Below, piece by piece: positions 8,149 to 42,022 of a DNA stretch of 64,000 bases (position 1 is the first letter of the stretch; every line of letters starts with the position of its first letter). The DNA lies in contig CAZLFP010000001.1 of assembly GCA_964558935.1 (NCBI GenBank), forward strand, positions 147,260 to 211,259, read 5' to 3'. This DNA is from an uncultured Gammaproteobacteria bacterium. GTDB taxonomy: Bacteria > Patescibacteriota > Patescibacteriia > 2-01-FULL-39-33. The notes beneath the pieces were generated by a model. It had not been told where the DNA came from, did not search any database, and was given only the letters and a program-made list of their open reading frames with translations. The position numbers were made by a program, and so were the translations under genes.

Positions 8149-8225
<77 letters not shown>

Positions 8226-20116: not shown

Positions 20117-20186
20117 GAACTGTGTAAATGTGACTAATTTCTGAGATCAATAAAAAACCGTCACATTTGAGACGATTTTTCTATTG

Positions 20187-20257
20187 CTCGGGGACATGGA
20201 TTCGAACCATGGTTACCAGGGCCAGAACCTGGCGTCCTACCACTAGACGATCCCCGA
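20187..20257 (-). tRNA. tRNA-Gln (anticodon CUG), no encoded CCA
   Basis: Reverse complement reads TCGGGGATCGTCTAGTGGTAGGACGCCAGGTTCTGGCCCTGGTAACCATGGTTCGAATCCATGTCCCCGAG. It has a 7-bp acceptor stem, GGTTCGAATCC T-arm and anticodon loop TTCTGGC. Confidence 0.85.
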
Positions 20258-22770: not shown

Positions 22771-25320
22771 TTAGTTAGAACTGAGATTAGTCTTACGGTC
22801 GACAGGTGCAACCGGATTTCCTCCCAACTGTCCAATCTTGGAGCGCTCAACAATCTGCTGAATGACGTCTCGTCTGGATTGGCCGTATTTTAATCTGGAC
22901 ATTTCTTTGACTGCCGGAATAATGGCGGGGTCGGCAGTATCCGGAAGAGGAAAAGTGTGCATATTGAAAGTATCTGAGGCTGTATTATCTATTAACAGTC
23001 TAATATAAGCGTTAAATTTGTCAATATTCATAACGTCATACTCATTGACTTTTGGCGCTAACTGCTTAGCGATCGTCTCAGCATCATCCACTCCGATTCG
23101 AAAAGAAACAACCGTACCCACATTGCCGAAAATGGCATCTTTAACCTTGGAATCACCACCTTGGGTCAATTGAGCAATATACTGATGAGCCATAATGAGA
23201 TTTAAACGGTATTTTCTGGCTTCAGCCAAAATAATTGAGATACTGTCGGTAATGAAGTTCTGAAACTCATCGATGTAGAGGTAGAAATCATTCCTTTGGT
23301 CTTCAGGTAAATCTGCTCTACCCAAAGCGGCCATTTGCAGTTTGGACACGGCAATTAAACCCAGCAAATTACTATTGGTCTCACCCACTTTACCTTTGGA
23401 TAAGTTCATCAGCAGAATCTTCTTCTCATCCATGACTTTGCGAAAACTAAAACCTGATTTCGGCTGACCAATAATATTCCTCATCAACTCATTTTCCACA
23501 AAACGACCGGTCTTGGAAATCACATAGGATAACATATCTGAAGCCGTACTGCCTTTTTGTGAAGCTTTATATTCTCTTTCCCAAAAATCTCTGACCAACA
23601 AATCTTTAACATGCCTTAATTTTTTGCGACGGTAAATATCGTCCGTAAAAATTCTGGGTAATTCAACCAAAGTACCGGGATCATTGGTATCCGCCATGAG
23701 CGCCAATAAAGCATTACGCATATAATGCTCAAACATCGGTCCGGCCATAGCCGGATCCGGCAATAATTTGTAGAAGATATTAATCATTTCTTGTGCCGCA
23801 AAATCCATTTCATGAGGAGATTTGGCTTCCAACATATTCAAGCCAATCGGTCGTTCCAAATCCGAAGGATCAAATAAAATAACATCATCCAATCTGTCTT
23901 TGGGAATGTGCGGCAAAATATCTTCAACTAAAGAACCATGGGGATCAACCACGCACACGCCTTTGCCGGCCTGAATATCCTGTATGACCAAACTGGCTGT
24001 TAACCAAGATTTACCCGTACCTGTCATGCCAATAATATACATATGACGTCGACGGTCATTATCTTTAATCCTAACTAAAGTTTTTTCTCCTCGATAAAAA
24101 TTCTCTCCCAACAACAAGCCTTCTTCCGGCATATCCACGGGTGGGGGCAGTTTGCGAGATTGCAGCCAGCGAATATTCGGTACTTCCGTACCTGGTATGG
24201 GTAAATGCCATAACGATGTCATTTCTTCGGTATTTAAAACAAAACCCAATTTGTCATCATAGATGCGATAAATGAAATCGGTAATTGTTTTTCTAACAGA
24301 TCCCTTGATGACAGCCCGAAAACCATTGGCATATTCATAATTTGAATACTGAGCAAAAGAATTAATAATGTAATCTAAGTTGTTTTTAGCCTGTTCTTGT
24401 TCCGGAGCAAACGTCACAATTCTGACATTAACATCCATACCGGCTCGAGACGCTTTTTCTTCAATGGATTTAACGGCTTCTTCTTCCATGGGAGAGAGAC
24501 GCTTGGGTTCTTTGGGCTCAGTCGGTTTAACAGAAGTGCCCAGCAGACCCTGAGGTCCGAACAACCAAGCAACCGGGCCTGACTTGGCTCCTGACATAGC
24601 TTCTTTCAAGGACTTGCCCTGGTGAACATCAGATGCCACTTTCACTCCCCTTTGACGCCATTCTTTTTTGGCTGACCTCATCACTACTTGCACAGCAGCC
24701 GCTTGACCATCTGGAATCTTAGATAAACCGGTTAAGAGTGAAGTCAGAGGATCCACTTGCATCTTTTTGTAAGTTAAAATCGGGTACATGCTATGTTTAA
24801 TCAACTGTAAATGCCCGGCAGCAGCTACACCCTTGGGTTTGAAAATGTTGTAATCCGGTACTTGCTCAATCTGGCAGTATGGATATTGAGTTAAAAATTG
24901 TTGACTGATGTAATCTTCCAGATACTCCGGAACGGCAATGTAAAAAGATATTAAATCATCATAGCCTTTGACAATTTCAAATGACCAGTTATCATAACGG
25001 CCGAACAACCAAGTTTTTAAACCTCTCAAGGCTTTCAAGCCTCCCAAATTGGCATAAAAATTTTCAATACCAGATAGAATTTCCTTGGCTTCTTTGTTTT
25101 GGTCACTTTCTTTTAAACTCTGTTTGGGTATGGTTAAACGAAAGACTCTTTTGGAAAAAGTGTTGGGTAAAAAACGTGGGAGTGACAACAGTTTTTTGAT
25201 CACAAACAAAATGGTTAATCCAATAATAAACAAGCTGGCACCAATACCGACAATTAAAACCGCCAGCCAAACATACTCTAAACTTTGACTCACATCTGGT
25301 AATGTATTGAATACCTCCAT
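22771..25320 (-). CDS. membrane-anchored P-loop ATPase of the TraD/TraG/VirD4 (type IV coupling protein, TraG-D_C) superfamily
   Basis: N-terminal TM helix, Walker A IGMTGTGKSW, Walker B region FYLYIDEF, and C-terminal ARKYRLNLIMAHQYIAQL...IFGNVGTVVSFR, which resembles the TraD/TrwB C-terminal motif. Confidence 0.6.
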   Translation of the reverse strand: MEVFNTLPDVSQSLEYVWLAVLIVGIGASLFIIGLTILFVIKKLLSLPRFLPNTFSKRVFRLTIPKQSLKESDQNKEAKEILSGIENFYANLGGLKALRGLKTWLFGRYDNWSFEIVKGYDDLISFYIAVPEYLEDYISQQFLTQYPYCQIEQVPDYNIFKPKGVAAAGHLQLIKHSMYPILTYKKMQVDPLTSLLTGLSKIPDGQAAAVQVVMRSAKKEWRQRGVKVASDVHQGKSLKEAMSGAKSGPVAWLFGPQGLLGTSVKPTEPKEPKRLSPMEEEAVKSIEEKASRAGMDVNVRIVTFAPEQEQAKNNLDYIINSFAQYSNYEYANGFRAVIKGSVRKTITDFIYRIYDDKLGFVLNTEEMTSLWHLPIPGTEVPNIRWLQSRKLPPPVDMPEEGLLLGENFYRGEKTLVRIKDNDRRRHMYIIGMTGTGKSWLTASLVIQDIQAGKGVCVVDPHGSLVEDILPHIPKDRLDDVILFDPSDLERPIGLNMLEAKSPHEMDFAAQEMINIFYKLLPDPAMAGPMFEHYMRNALLALMADTNDPGTLVELPRIFTDDIYRRKKLRHVKDLLVRDFWEREYKASQKGSTASDMLSYVISKTGRFVENELMRNIIGQPKSGFSFRKVMDEKKILLMNLSKGKVGETNSNLLGLIAVSKLQMAALGRADLPEDQRNDFYLYIDEFQNFITDSISIILAEARKYRLNLIMAHQYIAQLTQGGDSKVKDAIFGNVGTVVSFRIGVDDAETIAKQLAPKVNEYDVMNIDKFNAYIRLLIDNTASDTFNMHTFPLPDTADPAIIPAVKEMSRLKYGQSRRDVIQQIVERSKIGQLGGNPVAPVDRKTNLSSN

Positions 25321-27155: not shown

Positions 27156-28103
27156 TTATATTTTGTCAATATTAGCTACAATAACCTTAATATCCTGTAT
27201 TTTTTCAACTTTAACTAGCTCAGATCTTAATGTCTTAGCTCCCGGAAAGCCTGAGACATACCACAGCAGATGTTTTCTAAGTTCTACCAAACCATGACTT
27301 CCCTTAGCCTTAAAAGCTAACTTAGCATGTTCTAGGATAACTTTCTTTAGCATTTGTTTATTCATATCTTCAAAACTATCTTTCTTTAAATAGTCTTTTA
27401 TTTGTTTAAACAGATATGGCTTACCGTATACTCCTCTTGCTAAACCAATCCCATCTACACCTGTCTCTAGCATTTTTTTAGCATCTTCTGGTGACTTGAT
27501 TCCCCCATTGCCTAATACAATGCCATTGAACTTTTCTTTCACTTGCTTAATCATGTCATAATCTATGGGGCTGGTAAAAGGATTTTTAAAATATCTACCG
27601 TGTATCATTAAGGTGGAAACATCTAAATCCTTTATCTTATCTACAAAATCCAAAGCTGTTACCGTATCTATACCGGCTCTAATTTTAACAGACACCGGTA
27701 ACTTAGTGCCTTGAAGTACAGATTCGATGATCCGATAACAGTTATCTAAATCCCTCATCAGAGTAACTCCTCCACCATGAGCCACCACTTTTTTAGCCGG
27801 ACATCCAAAATTAATGTCTAGACCATCAAAACCATGCTTGGTGACTACTTGTGCTGCTTTTGTAAAAACTTCTGGTTTTTTTCCAAATAATTGGACTACG
27901 ACCGGTTTTTCTTTTTTAGAAAACTGAAGTAGTTCTAAGGTTTTCTTAGAATCATAATACAATCCATCTGCCGAGACCATTTCAGTATATACCACATCTG
28001 CTCCATACTGACGACACAGTTCACGAAAAGCAGAATCAGTTACGCCCGCCATAGGGGCGAGCGCTAAGATGGGCTGTTTAATTTTATGCCAGAAGTTTTT
28101 CAT
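27156..28103 (-). CDS. dus: tRNA-dihydrouridine synthase (Dus family)
   Basis: LALAPMAGVTD, FMN-binding TIM-barrel motifs and catalytic GCPA..V. Confidence 0.85.
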   Translation of the reverse strand: MKNFWHKIKQPILALAPMAGVTDSAFRELCRQYGADVVYTEMVSADGLYYDSKKTLELLQFSKKEKPVVVQLFGKKPEVFTKAAQVVTKHGFDGLDINFGCPAKKVVAHGGGVTLMRDLDNCYRIIESVLQGTKLPVSVKIRAGIDTVTALDFVDKIKDLDVSTLMIHGRYFKNPFTSPIDYDMIKQVKEKFNGIVLGNGGIKSPEDAKKMLETGVDGIGLARGVYGKPYLFKQIKDYLKKDSFEDMNKQMLKKVILEHAKLAFKAKGSHGLVELRKHLLWYVSGFPGAKTLRSELVKVEKIQDIKVIVANIDKI

Positions 28104-28606
28104 TAGTAGAAAATAAAGAAGTTAACCATATGCAATATTAATCCAATGACTATTATTACATAGTAATATATATGCTTGATTCTTACATATTTATATCGAC
28201 GTACGTAAATATTAAACATGTAAAAAGCATATAATATGGCTATGGGTACATACAAAATAATGGGAAAAGATATACCCGCAGCATAGTAGAACGGCATCTG
28301 AATAAAGTCTATAAATAATGCTATAAAGAAAGGTATAGCAATAATATTCCCAAATGTTTTTAAAGCAAAAACATAATTCTGTTTCTCAAATCCTTGAGCA
28401 AAATATTTAGCCAGTGTGTAGGCAACACTCAAAAAAAAGAAAGATAATAAAGGATAACCAAGTAAAATAAAAACGCCCATACCTTGTTGGGCATCAGAAG
28501 TTATTGAAGTTAAAAAAGCTGCAAACATAAGGACAATACCAAACAAAACCACATAGATACCAAATCTAAGTCCAGATAATTTGAATAACTTGTCTAATAA
28601 TTTCAC
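28103..28606 (-). CDS. small polytopic membrane protein, unknown function
   Basis: 4-5 hydrophobic helices; start/stop overlap with dus. Confidence 0.45.
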   Translation of the reverse strand: MKLLDKLFKLSGLRFGIYVVLFGIVLMFAAFLTSITSDAQQGMGVFILLGYPLLSFFFLSVAYTLAKYFAQGFEKQNYVFALKTFGNIIAIPFFIALFIDFIQMPFYYAAGISFPIILYVPIAILYAFYMFNIYVRRYKYVRIKHIYYYVIIVIGLILHMVNFFIFY

Positions 28607-28612
28607 AAAATT

Positions 28613-30004
28613 TTATTTACTTTTTAAATTATACCCTTCTTTAGTATCTTCAATTACATATCCTGCCTTATCTATCTCAGCTCTTAACTTATCTGACAGC
28701 TCATAGTCTTTATTTTGCTTAGCTTTTAATCTATCCTCTGCTAATTCAATTACCTCTTCAGGTATTTTTTCTTCCTGATCCAAATCTAAGCCAAATACTT
28801 TGTCCATATCTAAGATGGTAGCTTTAATATCTTCATGTTTAACATCTGACTTTAACAAATCCCACATCACAGCTAAAGCTTGAGGAATATTAAAATCATC
28901 TTCTAGAGCTGAAACAAACTTTTCTTTCCACTCTCGGTTAACCTTGCCTACTTTAGATATACTAGCTAATTTATTCTTTAAACTAGTGTAAGCACTACTA
29001 GCAGATTCAAGAGCTTCCCAAGTAAAGTTTTGTTTAGATCTGTAATGTGCTCCTAAGTAAAAATATCTTAAAACCAAAGGATCATAGCCTCTATCTCGAA
29101 TTTCTTCCAAAGAATAACCAGTTCCTAAAGATTTAGACATTTTGCCACCATCCACAGTTAGATGTTCGTTGTGTAGCCAATAGTTGGTAAAAGGTTTACC
29201 GGTAGCTGCTTCAGATTGAGCTATTTCATTCGTATGATGAACTGGAATATGCTCTACACCACCCATATGAATATCTAAGGTGTCTCCCAAATACTTTTGA
29301 CTCATTGCAGAACACTCTATATGCCAACCAGGAAATCCTTCTTCAACAGATTGCTTAATACCCTTAAACTGATGACTCCAGGTTTGTAGAGCATTCTTAT
29401 GTTTACCAGCTTTAAAAAACCAAACAGCAAAGTCAGCGGCATGTCTTTTACCTGGATCCCCTACTTCACCTTTACCAGCTGCAGATATATTCTTTTCCAA
29501 ATCCTGTTTGTTTAATTTAGTGTATCCGTCAAATTTAGAGATATCGAAATAGATGGCTAGATCTGTCGCGTAAGCATATCCCTTGTCTATTAAAGTCTGA
29601 ACCATGCTCTGCATCTCTTTAACATGTTCAGTCGCTTTTGGTTGTTTATATGGAGTAAGGACATTTAAATCTTTAACATCTTTCTCATAAATATTTATGT
29701 ACTTATGAGCAATCTCCTCAGGATTCATTTTTGCCTGCTTAGCACTCTTTTCCATCTTATCCTCACCCTCATCACTGTCTGATGTAAGATGGCCCACATC
29801 CGTATAATTTCGAACCAATTTAACTTCGTATCCTATATAGTCCAGGGATCTATGGATTAAATCCGCCAGCACCACTGCTCTTAAATTGCCGATGTGTTGT
29901 GTCCAATACACAGTCGGACCGCAATGATAAAAACCAACTTGTTTATCCTTAAGCGGTTTGAAGTCTTGTTTTTTCTTGTCTAATGTATTGTAAATCTTGA
30001 GCAT
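28613..30004 (-). CDS. cysS: cysteine--tRNA ligase
   Basis: HIGH-type CGPTVYWTQHIGN, KMSKSLG, and zinc-binding Cys/His residues. Confidence 0.95.
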   Translation of the reverse strand: MLKIYNTLDKKKQDFKPLKDKQVGFYHCGPTVYWTQHIGNLRAVVLADLIHRSLDYIGYEVKLVRNYTDVGHLTSDSDEGEDKMEKSAKQAKMNPEEIAHKYINIYEKDVKDLNVLTPYKQPKATEHVKEMQSMVQTLIDKGYAYATDLAIYFDISKFDGYTKLNKQDLEKNISAAGKGEVGDPGKRHAADFAVWFFKAGKHKNALQTWSHQFKGIKQSVEEGFPGWHIECSAMSQKYLGDTLDIHMGGVEHIPVHHTNEIAQSEAATGKPFTNYWLHNEHLTVDGGKMSKSLGTGYSLEEIRDRGYDPLVLRYFYLGAHYRSKQNFTWEALESASSAYTSLKNKLASISKVGKVNREWKEKFVSALEDDFNIPQALAVMWDLLKSDVKHEDIKATILDMDKVFGLDLDQEEKIPEEVIELAEDRLKAKQNKDYELSDKLRAEIDKAGYVIEDTKEGYNLKSK

Positions 30005-30045
30005 ATCTAAATTTTACAAGGAAAATCTGTTTTTTACAAGTTAAA

Positions 30046-30073
30046 AGCCGGAACTACCTCAGTAATTCCGGCT
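30046..30073 (-). terminator. intrinsic terminator downstream of the zinc-ribbon mini-genes
   Basis: gccggaa-N12-ttccggc, followed on the minus strand by TTTTAACTTGTAAAAAAC. Confidence 0.6.
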
Positions 30074-30078
30074 AAACA

Positions 30079-30249
30079 TCATGATTTGTCGAAAATCATG
30101 ACCTTACCCTGAAACAAACCCCAGCGCAGTCCACACTCTGGACAGAGATATGTCCGGCCTGAGCAAAGCTGTTTGGTCAGCAACCGGCCACAGTTGCACT
30201 CCAGCCAGCTTTCCACTTCCTCCCGTAAACAAACACTCTTACTCGGCAT
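30079..30249 (-). CDS. zinc-ribbon mini-protein 2 (56 aa), translationally coupled to mini-protein 1
   Basis: Its ATG overlaps the end of the upstream ORF (GATGCCGAGTAA). It has CNCG...(14 aa)...CPEC, a classic C-x-C/C-x2-C zinc ribbon. Not in the supplied ORF track because it is shorter than 60 aa. Confidence 0.35.
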   Translation of the reverse strand: MPSKSVCLREEVESWLECNCGRLLTKQLCSGRTYLCPECGLRWGLFQGKVMIFDKS

Positions 30250-30391
30250 CGACCAATTCTCCCTTGTCCTTTTTTTCAGTCTGGCCGAAATTCAGAAAAC
30301 AATGACGACAGTGATACTGGTGGCAAATGACTGAATCCGTGCTGACCAACTTATGGCACCTGGGGCATTCGACCGTGTCTTGCTTGGGCAT
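30239..30391 (-). CDS. zinc-ribbon mini-protein 1 (50 aa)
   Basis: SD AGGAGGG lies 8 nt before the ATG. MPKQDTVECPRCHKLVSTDSVICHQYHCRHCFLNF... carries CxxC plus C-x4-C-x2-C. The local GC content is much higher than in neighbouring sequence. Confidence 0.4.
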   Translation of the reverse strand: MPKQDTVECPRCHKLVSTDSVICHQYHCRHCFLNFGQTEKKDKGELVDAE

Positions 30392-30600
30392 CTTTTATCC
30401 CTCCTGTTAAGTTAGAGCTCAACCAAACAAAAACACCAACCTTTGAGTGAAAGGCTGGTTAGTAATTATCTGACTATGTAGCTAAGCACTAATAAGACTT
30501 TCACTCTGAGGAAGGAGTAATAAAGCTAGCAACAATAATCCTAAATTGTGAGTGAAAGTTGTCATATCTGATACCAGTGTAGCTAATTTTAGATTAATTG
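30392..30600 (-). promoter_or_regulatory. sigma70-like promoter (TTGACA-17-TACACT) and about 190-nt structured leader with three copies of CTTTCACTC/GAGTGAAAG giving mutually exclusive helices and a U-tract
   Basis: Minus-strand reading has ACTTTCACTC (A), GAGTGAAAGT (B, complementary to A and C) and CTTTCACTC (C) followed by UUGGUGUUUUUGUUUGG. Confidence 0.45.
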
Positions 30601-31199
30601 TCAAATTCGCCCGCCTTTCTATACTGTTGTAAATTAATGATTTTAAAAATATTGGTATAGATACAATCTTGTTTGGGAAAAGTTTTATCTGGTATGGGTA
30701 TATTCAGAAAAGGGCAGATTTTTTCCCAGCCTTCTCCTTTGGTGATATTCATAACCAAAAGATCATTTGGCCTATCTTTAAAATATTCCCGTACCTCTTT
30801 ATCGTGATTGTTATATGCCTGTCGATACTTTTCTTGGTTGTAATCTATACAACCGTAAATATCCTGATGCAACTGATTTAACCAATTGGCAGATTTAATA
30901 ATTTGACCCGGCCAAAAATGCCTTTTGCAAGAATCAAGCCATTTGTCCATATCTCTCTCCAAATAGATGAATTTAGCGTCCGGATATTCTCTGTCCAGCC
31001 TTTTGTAAAATCTAACCGTTGGAATATCCGCCAAAACATCATTGTGCTCAGCAGCCCATGACGAATACTTTAATTCAGGCTTCTCATATCTCATGATTCG
31101 AAACGGAAAATGATCTACTTTGTAACCCAGAATCTGGAGGGCTTTAGACAGACTGGTTGTACCAGTTTTGGACAGGCCTAAACAGAATATTTTAATCAT
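30594..31199 (-). CDS. sulfotransferase-family protein (PAPS-dependent, predicted)
   Basis: 5-prime-PSB-like motif SKTGTTS and 3-prime-PB-like RDMDKWLDS; about 200 aa. Confidence 0.55.
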   Translation of the reverse strand: MIKIFCLGLSKTGTTSLSKALQILGYKVDHFPFRIMRYEKPELKYSSWAAEHNDVLADIPTVRFYKRLDREYPDAKFIYLERDMDKWLDSCKRHFWPGQIIKSANWLNQLHQDIYGCIDYNQEKYRQAYNNHDKEVREYFKDRPNDLLVMNITKGEGWEKICPFLNIPIPDKTFPKQDCIYTNIFKIINLQQYRKAGEFDN

Positions 31200-32271
31200 A
31201 CGTATTGATTATTTGGTAAGACATAAAAGTATTAATGGAATTGTTCCATGAAAACCGTTCTGCTTTTTTACGACAATGACTGGTATCCAGCTTAAGGCAA
31301 TCCAAAGCCCCTTGTTTTAAATCTTCCGTCAAGAAACCATCTACTCCATGGGTAATTAAATCTTTAACCCCTTCAGCGTTGTGGGCAACCACCGGCAAAT
31401 CGCATGCCATGGCTTCAACCACCGCCAAACCGAAAGTATCTGTGCGGGAAGGAAACACAAAAACATCTGAAACAGACAAATGATCCACCACCTCCTGTCC
31501 TCTTTTGTAGCCAGTGAAGATCACGTTGTCTTTGGCATACTGCTTTTCAAATGCCTTCTTACTCGGTCCATCTCCCACAATGAGCTTAGAGCCAGGCAGA
31601 TCTAAATCTAGAAATTCTTTTAAATTTTTTTCTACAGCTATCCTGCCCAAATATGTAAAGATGGGCCTAGGCAAATTTTGAACTCTTGCCTCTACTTGGG
31701 GATTGGGATTCTTCTTAAACTTATCAATATCCACTCCTAAATACCAAGCTACCACATTCTTAAAATCGTACCTTTCCAGATGCTCTTTCATGGAATAACT
31801 GGTGGTTAAAACACGGTGTGCCAAGCTATGGAAACGTCTGTAAAAGCGGTACAAAAAGGAAACAGGTAGAAATTTTAATCGGTAGTTGATATACTCAGGC
31901 ATTTGGGTATGAAAACAGGTTGTATACTTCAAGTTCAAACGCTTACAGGTAATCCTGGCTGCCAAACCGATTGGTCCTTCAGTGGCAATATGGATGTAAT
32001 CCGGCCGTTCTGACTTCAAGGTGGCTGCCATGAAATGGGTTAAAAAAGGCTGTTGATGGAAACTATACCAACGACGCTTGCAAAAGATGGCTAAAGAAAT
32101 TTCCGGATATGACGGCAAGGGTATTGAATAAAATAAGCTGGGTTCAATTATTTTGACCTGAAAATTTCTGTGTTCCAAATGACTCTTTAACTGCTTCAAT
32201 ACCATCACCACCCCGTTAACCTGAGGCTCCCAGGAATCGGTAAATATGATGATTTTTTTTGCTTGTTCCAT
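31192..32271 (-). CDS. glycosyltransferase family 4
   Basis: FPSRTDTFGLAVVEAMACDLPVV GT4 motif. Confidence 0.75.
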   Translation of the reverse strand: MEQAKKIIIFTDSWEPQVNGVVMVLKQLKSHLEHRNFQVKIIEPSLFYSIPLPSYPEISLAIFCKRRWYSFHQQPFLTHFMAATLKSERPDYIHIATEGPIGLAARITCKRLNLKYTTCFHTQMPEYINYRLKFLPVSFLYRFYRRFHSLAHRVLTTSYSMKEHLERYDFKNVVAWYLGVDIDKFKKNPNPQVEARVQNLPRPIFTYLGRIAVEKNLKEFLDLDLPGSKLIVGDGPSKKAFEKQYAKDNVIFTGYKRGQEVVDHLSVSDVFVFPSRTDTFGLAVVEAMACDLPVVAHNAEGVKDLITHGVDGFLTEDLKQGALDCLKLDTSHCRKKAERFSWNNSINTFMSYQIINTYD

Positions 32272-41876: not shown

Positions 41877-41893
41877 ATATTTGTGTGATTTAA

Positions 41894-41918
41894 TAAAAAA
41901 ACTGCGGTTGATCCGCAG
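41894..41918 (-). terminator. leader attenuator hairpin with U7 immediately upstream of the rplJ start
   Basis: Minus-strand CTGCGG-AUCAA-CCGCAG followed by UUUUUUU; lies between the promoter and the rplJ ATG. Confidence 0.55.
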
Positions 41919-42022
41919 ATTACATGACTAAAGATAGTCAGAGAATATTCCTAGGCAGGGTTTTGTTTAAATTAAGCCAATTATGGCCCCCACGGTCTGC
42001 GGATGTCTTAAGTTATATTGGT

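Follow-up and report, generated by a model that had tools for sequence, protein, structure and literature searches.

A putative leucine-responsive transcription attenuator in front of two zinc-ribbon mini-genes in a Patescibacteria genome

The stretch of DNA considered here, referred to as the window, spans 64,000 nucleotides (nt) of an AT-rich Patescibacteria genome (GenBank assembly GCA_964558935.1, contig CAZLFP010000001.1, forward-strand positions 147,260 to 211,259). Between a sulfotransferase gene and cysS it harbours a compact unit, located entirely on the minus strand, in which a structured leader is followed by two overlapping open reading frames (ORFs) that encode zinc-ribbon mini-proteins of 50 and 56 amino acids (aa). 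The most plausible reading of this unit, to which we assign a probability of about three in four, is that of a ribosome-mediated, leucine-responsive transcription attenuator controlling a small operon of the two mini-proteins. Several hallmarks of this class of regulator are present: an ORF with leucine (Leu) codons, a terminator ahead of the first gene, antiterminator and terminator helices that exclude each other, and an anti-antiterminator helix that overlaps the leader ORF. Homologous leaders are found in three other lineages of Patescibacteria, in one of them directly upstream of leuA. An earlier note on the same DNA had proposed an attenuator or a riboswitch-like switch. The first part of that proposal stands; the second is abandoned, because a conserved, Leu-rich leader ORF of 27 codons indicates that the ribosome is the mediator.

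Promoter and leader peptide

The unit is headed by a sigma-70-type promoter at 30576..30604 (window coordinates are used throughout), composed of TTGACA (30604-30599), a 17-nt spacer and TACACT (30581-30576), with a score of 10/12. This promoter, already pointed out in the earlier note, has a -35 box that overlaps the stop codon of the sulfotransferase gene (Sulfotransfer_4, E = 8e-38; gene end at 30594). The leader ORF (30482..30565, minus strand) consists of 27 codons followed by TAG and encodes MTTFTHNLGLLLLALLLLPQSESLISA, with 10 Leu codons. Its ATG, at 30565, lies 10 nt past the -10 box, so that the mRNA would be leaderless or nearly so; no Shine-Dalgarno (SD) sequence precedes it. The stop codon is at 30484-30482.

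Syntenic contigs of relatives were retrieved through their CysS homologues, and nine lineages were examined at the junction between murF and cysS. Four carry the leader: the window, its closest relative L012 (whose CysS is 85% identical), L016-18 (67%) and L058 (66%). No leader was found at this junction in the other five, namely L013-15, L053/54, L055/56, L057 (250 nt upstream of cysS only) and L059/60. By blastn, the window leader matches that of L012 with 84.6% identity over 162 nt and that of L016-18 with 70.7% over 150 nt; the L058 leader was identified by direct reading of the sequence. A covariance model built from the four leaders scores all of them at 152-161 bits and nothing else in 155 kb, and it detects no second copy in the window or in 15 related loci. 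In a metagenome scan, a three-segment DNA pattern picked out 34 loci, which were discarded as chance matches or repeats since blastn revealed no homology between any of them and the leader. Viral contigs, scanned twice, gave no match.

The architecture of the leader ORF is strikingly constant. Both promoter hexamers can be aligned in all four leaders (TTGACA or TTGACG; TACACT, TATACT or TATATT), the ATG falls 6-10 nt past the -10 box without an SD, and the ORF is exactly 27 codons long. Two pairing segments described below, 1 and 2, occupy nt 7-16 and 60-69 of the ORF in every case (codons 3-6 and 20-23 in the window), the stop codon occupies nt 82-84, and 7-10 Leu codons are found at positions 8-18. 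Insertions and deletions (indels) are absent from the ORF across the four leaders and begin 2-4 nt past the stop. The peptides themselves, which read MKTFTYNLGLLLLALLLPPQSESLISA in L012, MNTFTQNLGLLLGLLLLGFRGGSFICA in L016 and MKTSIKQSNLLGLLLLLNYQSGSFVSV in L058, are conserved in the Leu run only: in distant pairs the proportion of non-synonymous differences (pN) is close to that of synonymous ones (pS), and aa identity is 41-48%. A peptide that varies outside its Leu run is as expected for a sensor peptide, not for a functional protein.

This pattern bears on a very improbable alternative, according to which promoter, 27-aa hydrophobic peptide and terminator constitute a stand-alone small gene, coding for a membrane protein or a type I toxin-like product, and the mini-genes are reached by leaky read-through. 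The peptide does have a hydrophobic core (LGLLLLALLLL), the presumed gene has a promoter and a terminator of its own that delimit an RNA of ~140 nt, and this mRNA is strongly folded. The poor conservation of the peptide beyond the Leu run, with pN close to pS, argues in the opposite direction, and no plus-strand promoter for an antisense RNA over the leader ORF, as befits a type I toxin-antitoxin pair, was found. A stand-alone gene would also leave unexplained a conserved pairing between segments 2 and 3, together with its compensatory change, and the presence in all four lineages of a strong SD and a gene directly after the terminator.

Mutually exclusive helices in the leader RNA

The leader contains three short segments that can pair in alternative ways. 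Segment 1 (ACTTTCACTC, 30559-30550) provides the 5' arm of a perfect 10-bp helix with segment 2 (GAGTGAAAGT, 30506-30497). Segment 2 can pair instead with segment 3 (CCTTTCACTC, 30445..30454), which is located in the 5' arm and loop of an intrinsic terminator. The terminator hairpin (ACCAGCCTTT-cactc-AAAGGTTGGT, 30459-30435) is followed by the U-tract GTTTTTGTTT, and the whole element extends over 30425..30459. The roles are those known from attenuators of the trp/leu type: anti-antiterminator for helix 1:2, antiterminator for 2:3 and terminator for 3:4. The earlier note, which had recognized the three-segment repeat and its exclusive helices, took the 2:3 pairing followed by the U-tract for the terminator; as the U-tract follows the separate hairpin 3:4, the logic of the switch is the reverse of that proposed there. 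Between segments 2 and 3 lies a middle hairpin (30460..30491) that contains the stop codon of the leader ORF and for which RNAalifold gives a consensus of 10 pairs, one of them compensatory. This hairpin can stack beneath helix 2:3 to produce a long antiterminator, which is covered by a 39-nt imperfect inverted repeat (I1).

The repeat is beyond chance in the window. The 9-mer CTTTCACTC, which forms positions 30453-30445 of segment 3, occurs four times in 64 kb compared with 0.62 expected, a count reached in 0 of 100 shuffles, and three of the four copies fall within 115 nt in the leader. The remaining copy lies at 24639-24647 on the plus strand, where the covariance model finds no leader-like element.

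Folding predictions are in agreement with the three roles. The minimum-free-energy fold of the leader, a prediction that the earlier note had recommended together with a search for homologous leaders and covariation, combines helix 1:2 with the terminator (-43.9 kcal/mol, z = -2.2). For a transcript that ends short of the terminator's 3' arm and has nt 1-28 blocked, the best fold in all four leaders is the 2:3 hairpin. The relatives supply the covariation, with compensatory changes in each helix. For 1:2 and 3:4 taken together, 92.9% of the alignment cells are paired compared with 32-58% after a shift of the partners by 1-3 columns, and three pairs have changed on both sides; for 2:3 the corresponding values are 94.4% and 31-56%, with one pair changed on both sides, from A-U to G-C in L016. 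Considered alone, helix 1:2 has 97.5% of its cells paired and one compensatory pair in the four-sequence alignment, and the terminator stem is likewise conserved in the four leaders with compensatory changes. Helix 1:2, the middle hairpin and the terminator also emerge independently from RNAalifold. The G.U wobbles present in these helices would be A.C mismatches on the opposite strand, which indicates that the RNA is read from the minus strand.

The same substitutions bear on the idea that the three 9-10-mers, ~53 bp apart, act at the DNA level as operators for a DNA-binding regulator instead of as RNA helices. Their regular start-to-start spacing of 53 and 52 nt, equivalent to ~5 helical turns, is in keeping with such a role. 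However, the changes seen in relatives maintain RNA pairing, through G.U wobbles and double changes, and not a single DNA motif; in addition, one copy is inverted and the third is embedded in a canonical terminator. We regard operators of this type as extremely improbable.

A translation-independent switch, in which a small molecule, a tRNA or an RNA-binding protein would flip the helices and the ORF would be incidental, is also improbable, if somewhat less remote. The zinc-ribbon proteins might in this case be autoregulators. The lack of an SD in front of the leader ORF would fit a switch of this kind, as would the conservation of the helices and of the middle hairpin as RNA, and the fact that the cargo differs by lineage calls for a signal independent of the cargo. 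Nevertheless, at 60-73% nt identity the leaders preserve the start of the ORF, its 27-codon length, its stop and its Leu run without a single indel in the ORF, and in L058 the leader precedes leuA. The 43-nt spacers reveal no conserved structure resembling a ligand pocket, and autoregulation by the cargo cannot account for a leader that is shared by three unrelated cargos. A search of 29900-30750 against Rfam returned no match at the gathering score and no leader, T-box or riboswitch family even at E values up to 10; on this basis a T-box, a riboswitch or another structured non-coding RNA was rejected for the leader as well as for the GC-rich patch that follows it. Neither sequence nor covariance-model similarity links the window leader to any Rfam family at this threshold. 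Rfam is expected to include a Leu leader model.

Proposed mechanism of attenuation

In the attenuation model, transcription would start a few bases before the ATG at 30565, generating a leaderless or nearly leaderless mRNA, and the 27-codon leader peptide with its 10 Leu codons would be translated while RNA polymerase transcribes the leader. In the absence of a ribosome, or with a ribosome positioned at the stop codon (30484-30482), which forms part of the middle hairpin separating segments 2 and 3, segment 1 would pair with segment 2. Formation of helix 1:2 would allow the terminator at 30459-30435 and its U-tract to form, and transcription would stop before the first mini-gene, ORF1 (OFF state). 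When charged tRNA-Leu is scarce, the ribosome would stall between segments 1 and 2, where the early Leu codons lie, so that helix 1:2 could not close. Segment 2, left free, would then pair with the emerging segment 3, stacked on the middle hairpin; the terminator would be blocked, and ORF1 and the second mini-gene, ORF2, would be transcribed. The distance from the U-tract to the ATG of ORF1 is only ~35 nt and no promoter was found in this interval, which implies that the mini-genes must depend on read-through.

A number of observations weigh against this model. The site of transcription initiation, the synthesis of the leader peptide and the termination event are predictions from the sequence. 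No SD precedes the leader ORF, which would have to rely on leaderless initiation, a putative mode in this group. A ribosome halted at Leu codons 15-18, late in the run, would sit on segment 2 and promote termination, and the response would therefore depend on the position of the stall. The truncated transcripts of L012 and L016 are predicted to adopt the 2:3 hairpin as their best fold even when every nt is left free to pair, so that the OFF state would rely there on the order of co-transcriptional folding. The observed pairing score is reached by 18 of 500 shuffles for 1:2 and 3:4 and by 248 of 500 for 2:3; with only four independent leader sequences available, the statistical support for covariation is weak. 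Finally, no leuA was found in the 64-kb window, and the window cargo displays neither an evident link to leucine nor similarity to LeuA.

Exchangeable cargo behind a conserved leader

The most telling context of the leader is that in L058. The gene directly behind the leader in this lineage encodes a protein of 512 aa that scores 690 bits with TIGR00973 (cutoff 598.7) and 728 bits with NF002086 (cutoff 532) and contains the Pfam domains HMGL-like, HCS_D2 and LeuA_dimer. Judged by these matches, it is a bona fide LeuA, 2-isopropylmalate synthase. With leuA preceded by a Leu-rich leader peptide, an antiterminator and a terminator, the L058 locus conforms to the classical leucine attenuator. A gene that makes or charges the sensed amino acid, a further trait of the attenuator class, is thus found behind the leader in L058 and not in the window.

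The other lineages display different cargos. In L016 the leader is followed by a 133-aa protein without family, in L012 by three zinc-ribbon mini-ORFs, two of which are orthologous to those of the window, and in the window by the two zinc-ribbon mini-ORFs. The GC content of the cargo is 39% in L058 (flanks ~34%), 53.5% in L016 (43-46%), 46% in L012 (32-35%) and 50% in the window (35-36%), the last value corresponding to the GC-rich patch between cysS and the sulfotransferase-like gene described in the earlier note. The 133-aa protein and the zinc-ribbon micro-proteins are compositionally foreign. The window cargo is probably a GC-rich cassette acquired from elsewhere, a direction of exchange that we infer. 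The stretch from the T-run to the SD can still be aligned across the window, L012 and L016 despite the different cargo, which places the boundary of the swap at about the start codon. A strong SD and a gene are found directly after the terminator in all four lineages, the SD of ORF1 being AGGAGGG (30399..30405, minus strand). Degraded leuA remnants were considered as the source of the mini-ORF patch and of the 133-aa ORF of L016 and were rejected, as blastx and blastn comparisons with L058 leuA gave E values of at least 0.14 in a tiny search space.

Comparison of the window with L012 indicates that the leader is maintained by selection. The two leader ORFs are 91% identical, although synonymous sites in the neighbouring genes are near saturation: pS is 0.62 in cysS, where only 45% of four-fold sites are identical, and 0.85 in the sulfotransferase gene. 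Every element of the leader is intact in both loci and both have the zinc-ribbon cargo. The attenuator has therefore been kept by selection while controlling mini-genes.

These values are difficult to reconcile with the notion of a relic, in which the attenuator would be a decaying remnant of a lost leuA and the mini-ORFs chance ORFs in a GC-rich insert. The absence of leuA from the window would be accounted for in this manner, GC-rich DNA in an AT-rich genome tends to be open in several frames, and the mini-proteins are without homologues in very large databases. Against this, decay is not what a leader ORF 91% identical between loci with nearly saturated flanking synonymous sites, and with all elements intact, would suggest. 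Moreover, the mini-ORFs show tblastx conservation in no frame but their own, retain all metal-ligand cysteines, are each preceded by an SD at proper spacing and have pN well below pS. We attach very little credence to the relic.

The zinc-ribbon mini-proteins

ORF1 (30239..30391, minus strand) encodes a 50-aa protein with the pattern CPRC...C-x4-C-x2-C, in which C9, C12, C29 and C32 are accompanied by C24, and ORF2 (30079..30249, minus strand) a 56-aa protein with the pattern CNCG...CPEC (C18, C20, C36 and C39). The two genes, whose overlap had been noticed in the earlier note, share 11 nt within GATGCCGAGTAA, and an internal GTG at 30216 represents an alternative start for ORF2. Conservation of the pair in relatives, which the note had proposed as a check, is borne out by L012: ORF1 is orthologous to ORF-A of this lineage (47% aa identity, pN 0.35 and pS 0.95), and the C-terminal 43 aa of ORF2 are orthologous to ORF-C (37% identity, pN 0.42 and pS 0.88). 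All metal-ligand cysteines of ORF1 and ORF2 are conserved in ORF-A and ORF-C, and pN/pS is ~0.4 for the mini-ORFs. In both proteins four ligands are arranged in two CxxC-type knuckles ~15 residues apart, as in zinc ribbons. Every mini-ORF in the window and in L012 has an SD at proper spacing, and tblastx confines the conservation between the two loci to the frames of the mini-ORFs themselves. ORF1 and ORF2 thus look like real, tightly packed zinc-ribbon genes that evolve fast under selection.

L012 carries an additional paralogue, ORF-B, most of which is missing from the window through a deletion of ~110 nt relative to L012, and on this account ORF2 may be a fusion of ORF-B and ORF-C. A common pattern, C-x(1,2)-C ... 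Y-[HL]-C-x(2,4)-C, is shared by all five mini-proteins.

Database searches place the proteins in no established family. Pfam, NCBIfam, PADLOC and PHROGs yielded only sub-threshold, generic zinc-ribbon matches, and word-indexed protein searches with ORF1 and ORF2 yielded none; NCBIfam PRK14890 matches ORF-B of L012 only, at E = 0.009, far below cutoff. A phmmer search with ORF2 against 1.84 billion representatives retrieved only long, repetitive Cys-rich proteins, and a metagenome scan with ORF2 gave no match. A scan of genome contigs with ORF1 produced 11 loci in Latescibacterota and Gemmatimonadota, which were rejected as orthologues because the matches are generic and of the CPRCHKLV type; the two of these 11 that were inspected are N-terminal zinc ribbons of membrane proteins of ~270 aa. 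The earlier note had recognized neither the proteins nor the leader as a known family; this holds for the proteins, which have no match above threshold, and fails for the leader, whose class is well known and whose homologue precedes leuA in L058.

Single-sequence AlphaFold2 gave a poor model for ORF1 (pLDDT 63) and an all-beta model for ORF2 (pLDDT 82); a Foldseek search of the latter against the PDB returned no significant match and nothing with E < 0.6. At the sequence level, residues 5-40 of ORF2 (30082-30249) resemble the N-terminal half of 9fhl_C, including an identical REEVE motif. The full-sequence E value is 3e-4, and the per-domain values are only 0.11 and 1.9, so that the likeness is not significant per domain. 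The chain 9fhl_C belongs to the 30S subunit of S. solfataricus, is an HVO_2753-like two-zinc protein and is probably the aS34 of PMC11698992. The resemblance is suggestive of a ribosome-associated micro-protein and is to be taken as a lead only. The mini-proteins are similar to the HVO_2753 family and 9fhl_C in size (45-65 aa) and in the C(P)XCG-type zinc-ribbon knuckles; however, ORF2 has two knuckles whereas HVO_2753-like and aS34 proteins have four C(P)XCG motifs. By this count, by the per-domain E values and by the Foldseek result, ORF2 does not qualify as a member of that family. The aS34 family is reported to be restricted to Thermoprotei (PMC11698992).

Genomic neighbourhood

The mini-gene unit is closed by a strong intrinsic terminator of 12 pairs (30046..30073, minus strand) that is conserved in L012. 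Downstream of it, cysS has a promoter of its own (TTGTAA, 17 nt, TAAAAT; 30011..30039, minus strand), highly conserved in L012, and is therefore a separate transcription unit. The closest named matches of CysS are from Patescibacteria, Buchananbacteria and Falkowbacteria. Two tandem direct repeats of 20 nt, 75% alike (ATCTAAATTTTACAAGGAAA and ATCTGTTTTTTACAAGTTAA), span the cysS promoter region at 30005-30044. In L053, ~5 tandem copies of the hexamer AAATAG are found just upstream of the cysS promoter (2933-2962).

The perfect 9-bp palindrome reported earlier across the TGA stop of ORF2 is present at 30079..30101 and is unremarkable. A role as an operator was rejected, since the palindrome is missing at the homologous place in L012 and ~12 comparable inverted repeats occur in the window; it probably has no function. 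At the other end of the unit, a block of ~42 nt (30619-30660, minus strand), which corresponds to the last ~14 codons of the sulfotransferase gene and lies just upstream of the -35 box of the leader promoter, is near-invariant between the window and L012, with two mismatches. The same gene as a whole has 73% nt identity and a pS of 0.85. The block includes an imperfect AT-rich palindrome (AATGATTTTAAA/TTTAAAAATATT) and may serve the leader promoter as an UP element or as a site for a regulator.

The ancestral gene order at this locus, as judged from the contigs compared, is PBP-murF-cysS-dus, with a variable murF-cysS junction. The surroundings of murF-cysS-dus are an insertion hotspot (L016 4851-5780, L055 4459-5100, window 28103-28606 and 30594-32271): an integrase of the rve family in L016 and a Y1 transposase in L055 are located next to cysS, and in the window a glycosyltransferase gene and the sulfotransferase gene stand between murF and the leader. 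A 167-aa membrane ORF separates cysS from dus in the window and is absent from L012, where cysS abuts dus. In several relatives murF is followed by a short ORF (~40-70 aa) for a very basic product, equipped with a promoter, an SD and a terminator of its own and lacking any Pfam match (L016 2094-2240, L053 2715-2837, L058 ~883-1091, L060 2778-2911). This ORF is situated upstream of the leader where a leader exists and is absent at that place in the window.

Elsewhere in the window, a ribosomal protein L10 leader (RF00557) was detected at 41886-42020 on the minus strand with 53.4 bits, above the gathering score. The only tRNA genes are those for tRNA-Val (8149-8225) and tRNA-Gln (20186-20257).

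Relationship to known attenuators

Attenuators with Leu-rich peptides are present in E. coli and Salmonella, and experimental support is available for S. aureus (PMC5794164). The window leader shares with leuL of E. coli and Salmonella and with the S. aureus ilv-leu leader (PMC5794164) an upstream ORF with a Leu run, an intrinsic terminator before the structural genes and mutually exclusive anti-antiterminator, antiterminator and terminator helices, and the homologue in L058 shares the leuA cargo. It differs from them in the absence of an SD, in the start of its ORF (6-10 nt past the -10 box), in its Patescibacteria host and in its zinc-ribbon cargo.

A closer parallel with respect to initiation is offered by Actinobacteria. 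In C. glutamicum, ilvBNC is controlled by a leaderless three-hairpin attenuator (PMC11857589), and candidate leader peptides with Leu codons have been described upstream of leuA and ilvB in members of this phylum, although the results of mutation in Streptomyces were at odds with classical attenuation (PMC1262725). The actinobacterial leaderless attenuators (PMC11857589; leuA and ilvB candidates in PMC1262725 and PMC3890552) resemble the window leader in their leaderless leader peptide, in sensor codons for branched-chain amino acids and in a first hairpin, near the start codon, that acts as anti-antiterminator; the sequences are unrelated and the phylum is different. The 'LEU element' of actinobacterial leuA is proposed to mask the SD in a pseudoknot, whereas the window leader has a clear terminator and U-tract. 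In the literature searched, no paper was found that combines Patescibacteria or the candidate phyla radiation, a leader peptide and attenuation.

Implications

A broader and fairly unlikely extension of these observations deserves mention. The murF-cysS junction of this clade might be a fixed regulatory slot, in which promoter, leaderless Leu attenuator and SD stay and the coding cargo is exchanged. The attenuator would have been redeployed to sense amino-acid or translation stress in general, and the zinc-ribbon micro-proteins would be starvation-induced factors, possibly associated with the ribosome; this last suggestion derives from the weak similarity to 9fhl_C, a chain of the archaeal 30S subunit that is probably aS34.

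The mechanism proposed for the window unit is itself textbook, the kind of regulator is well known and the practical gain is modest. Its unusual trait is the presence of orphan zinc-ribbon micro-proteins in the regulated position, in a phylum for which no such attenuator appears to be on record; the leader ORF is apparently leaderless. Whatever their role, the mini-proteins are predicted to be switched on when the charging of tRNA-Leu falls, which provides a first handle on two orphan micro-proteins. The occurrence of one leader with three different cargos in related lineages portrays a regulatory module that has outlived the gene that it presumably first controlled. The exchange of cargo behind this leader bears on the re-use of scarce regulatory parts in reduced genomes.

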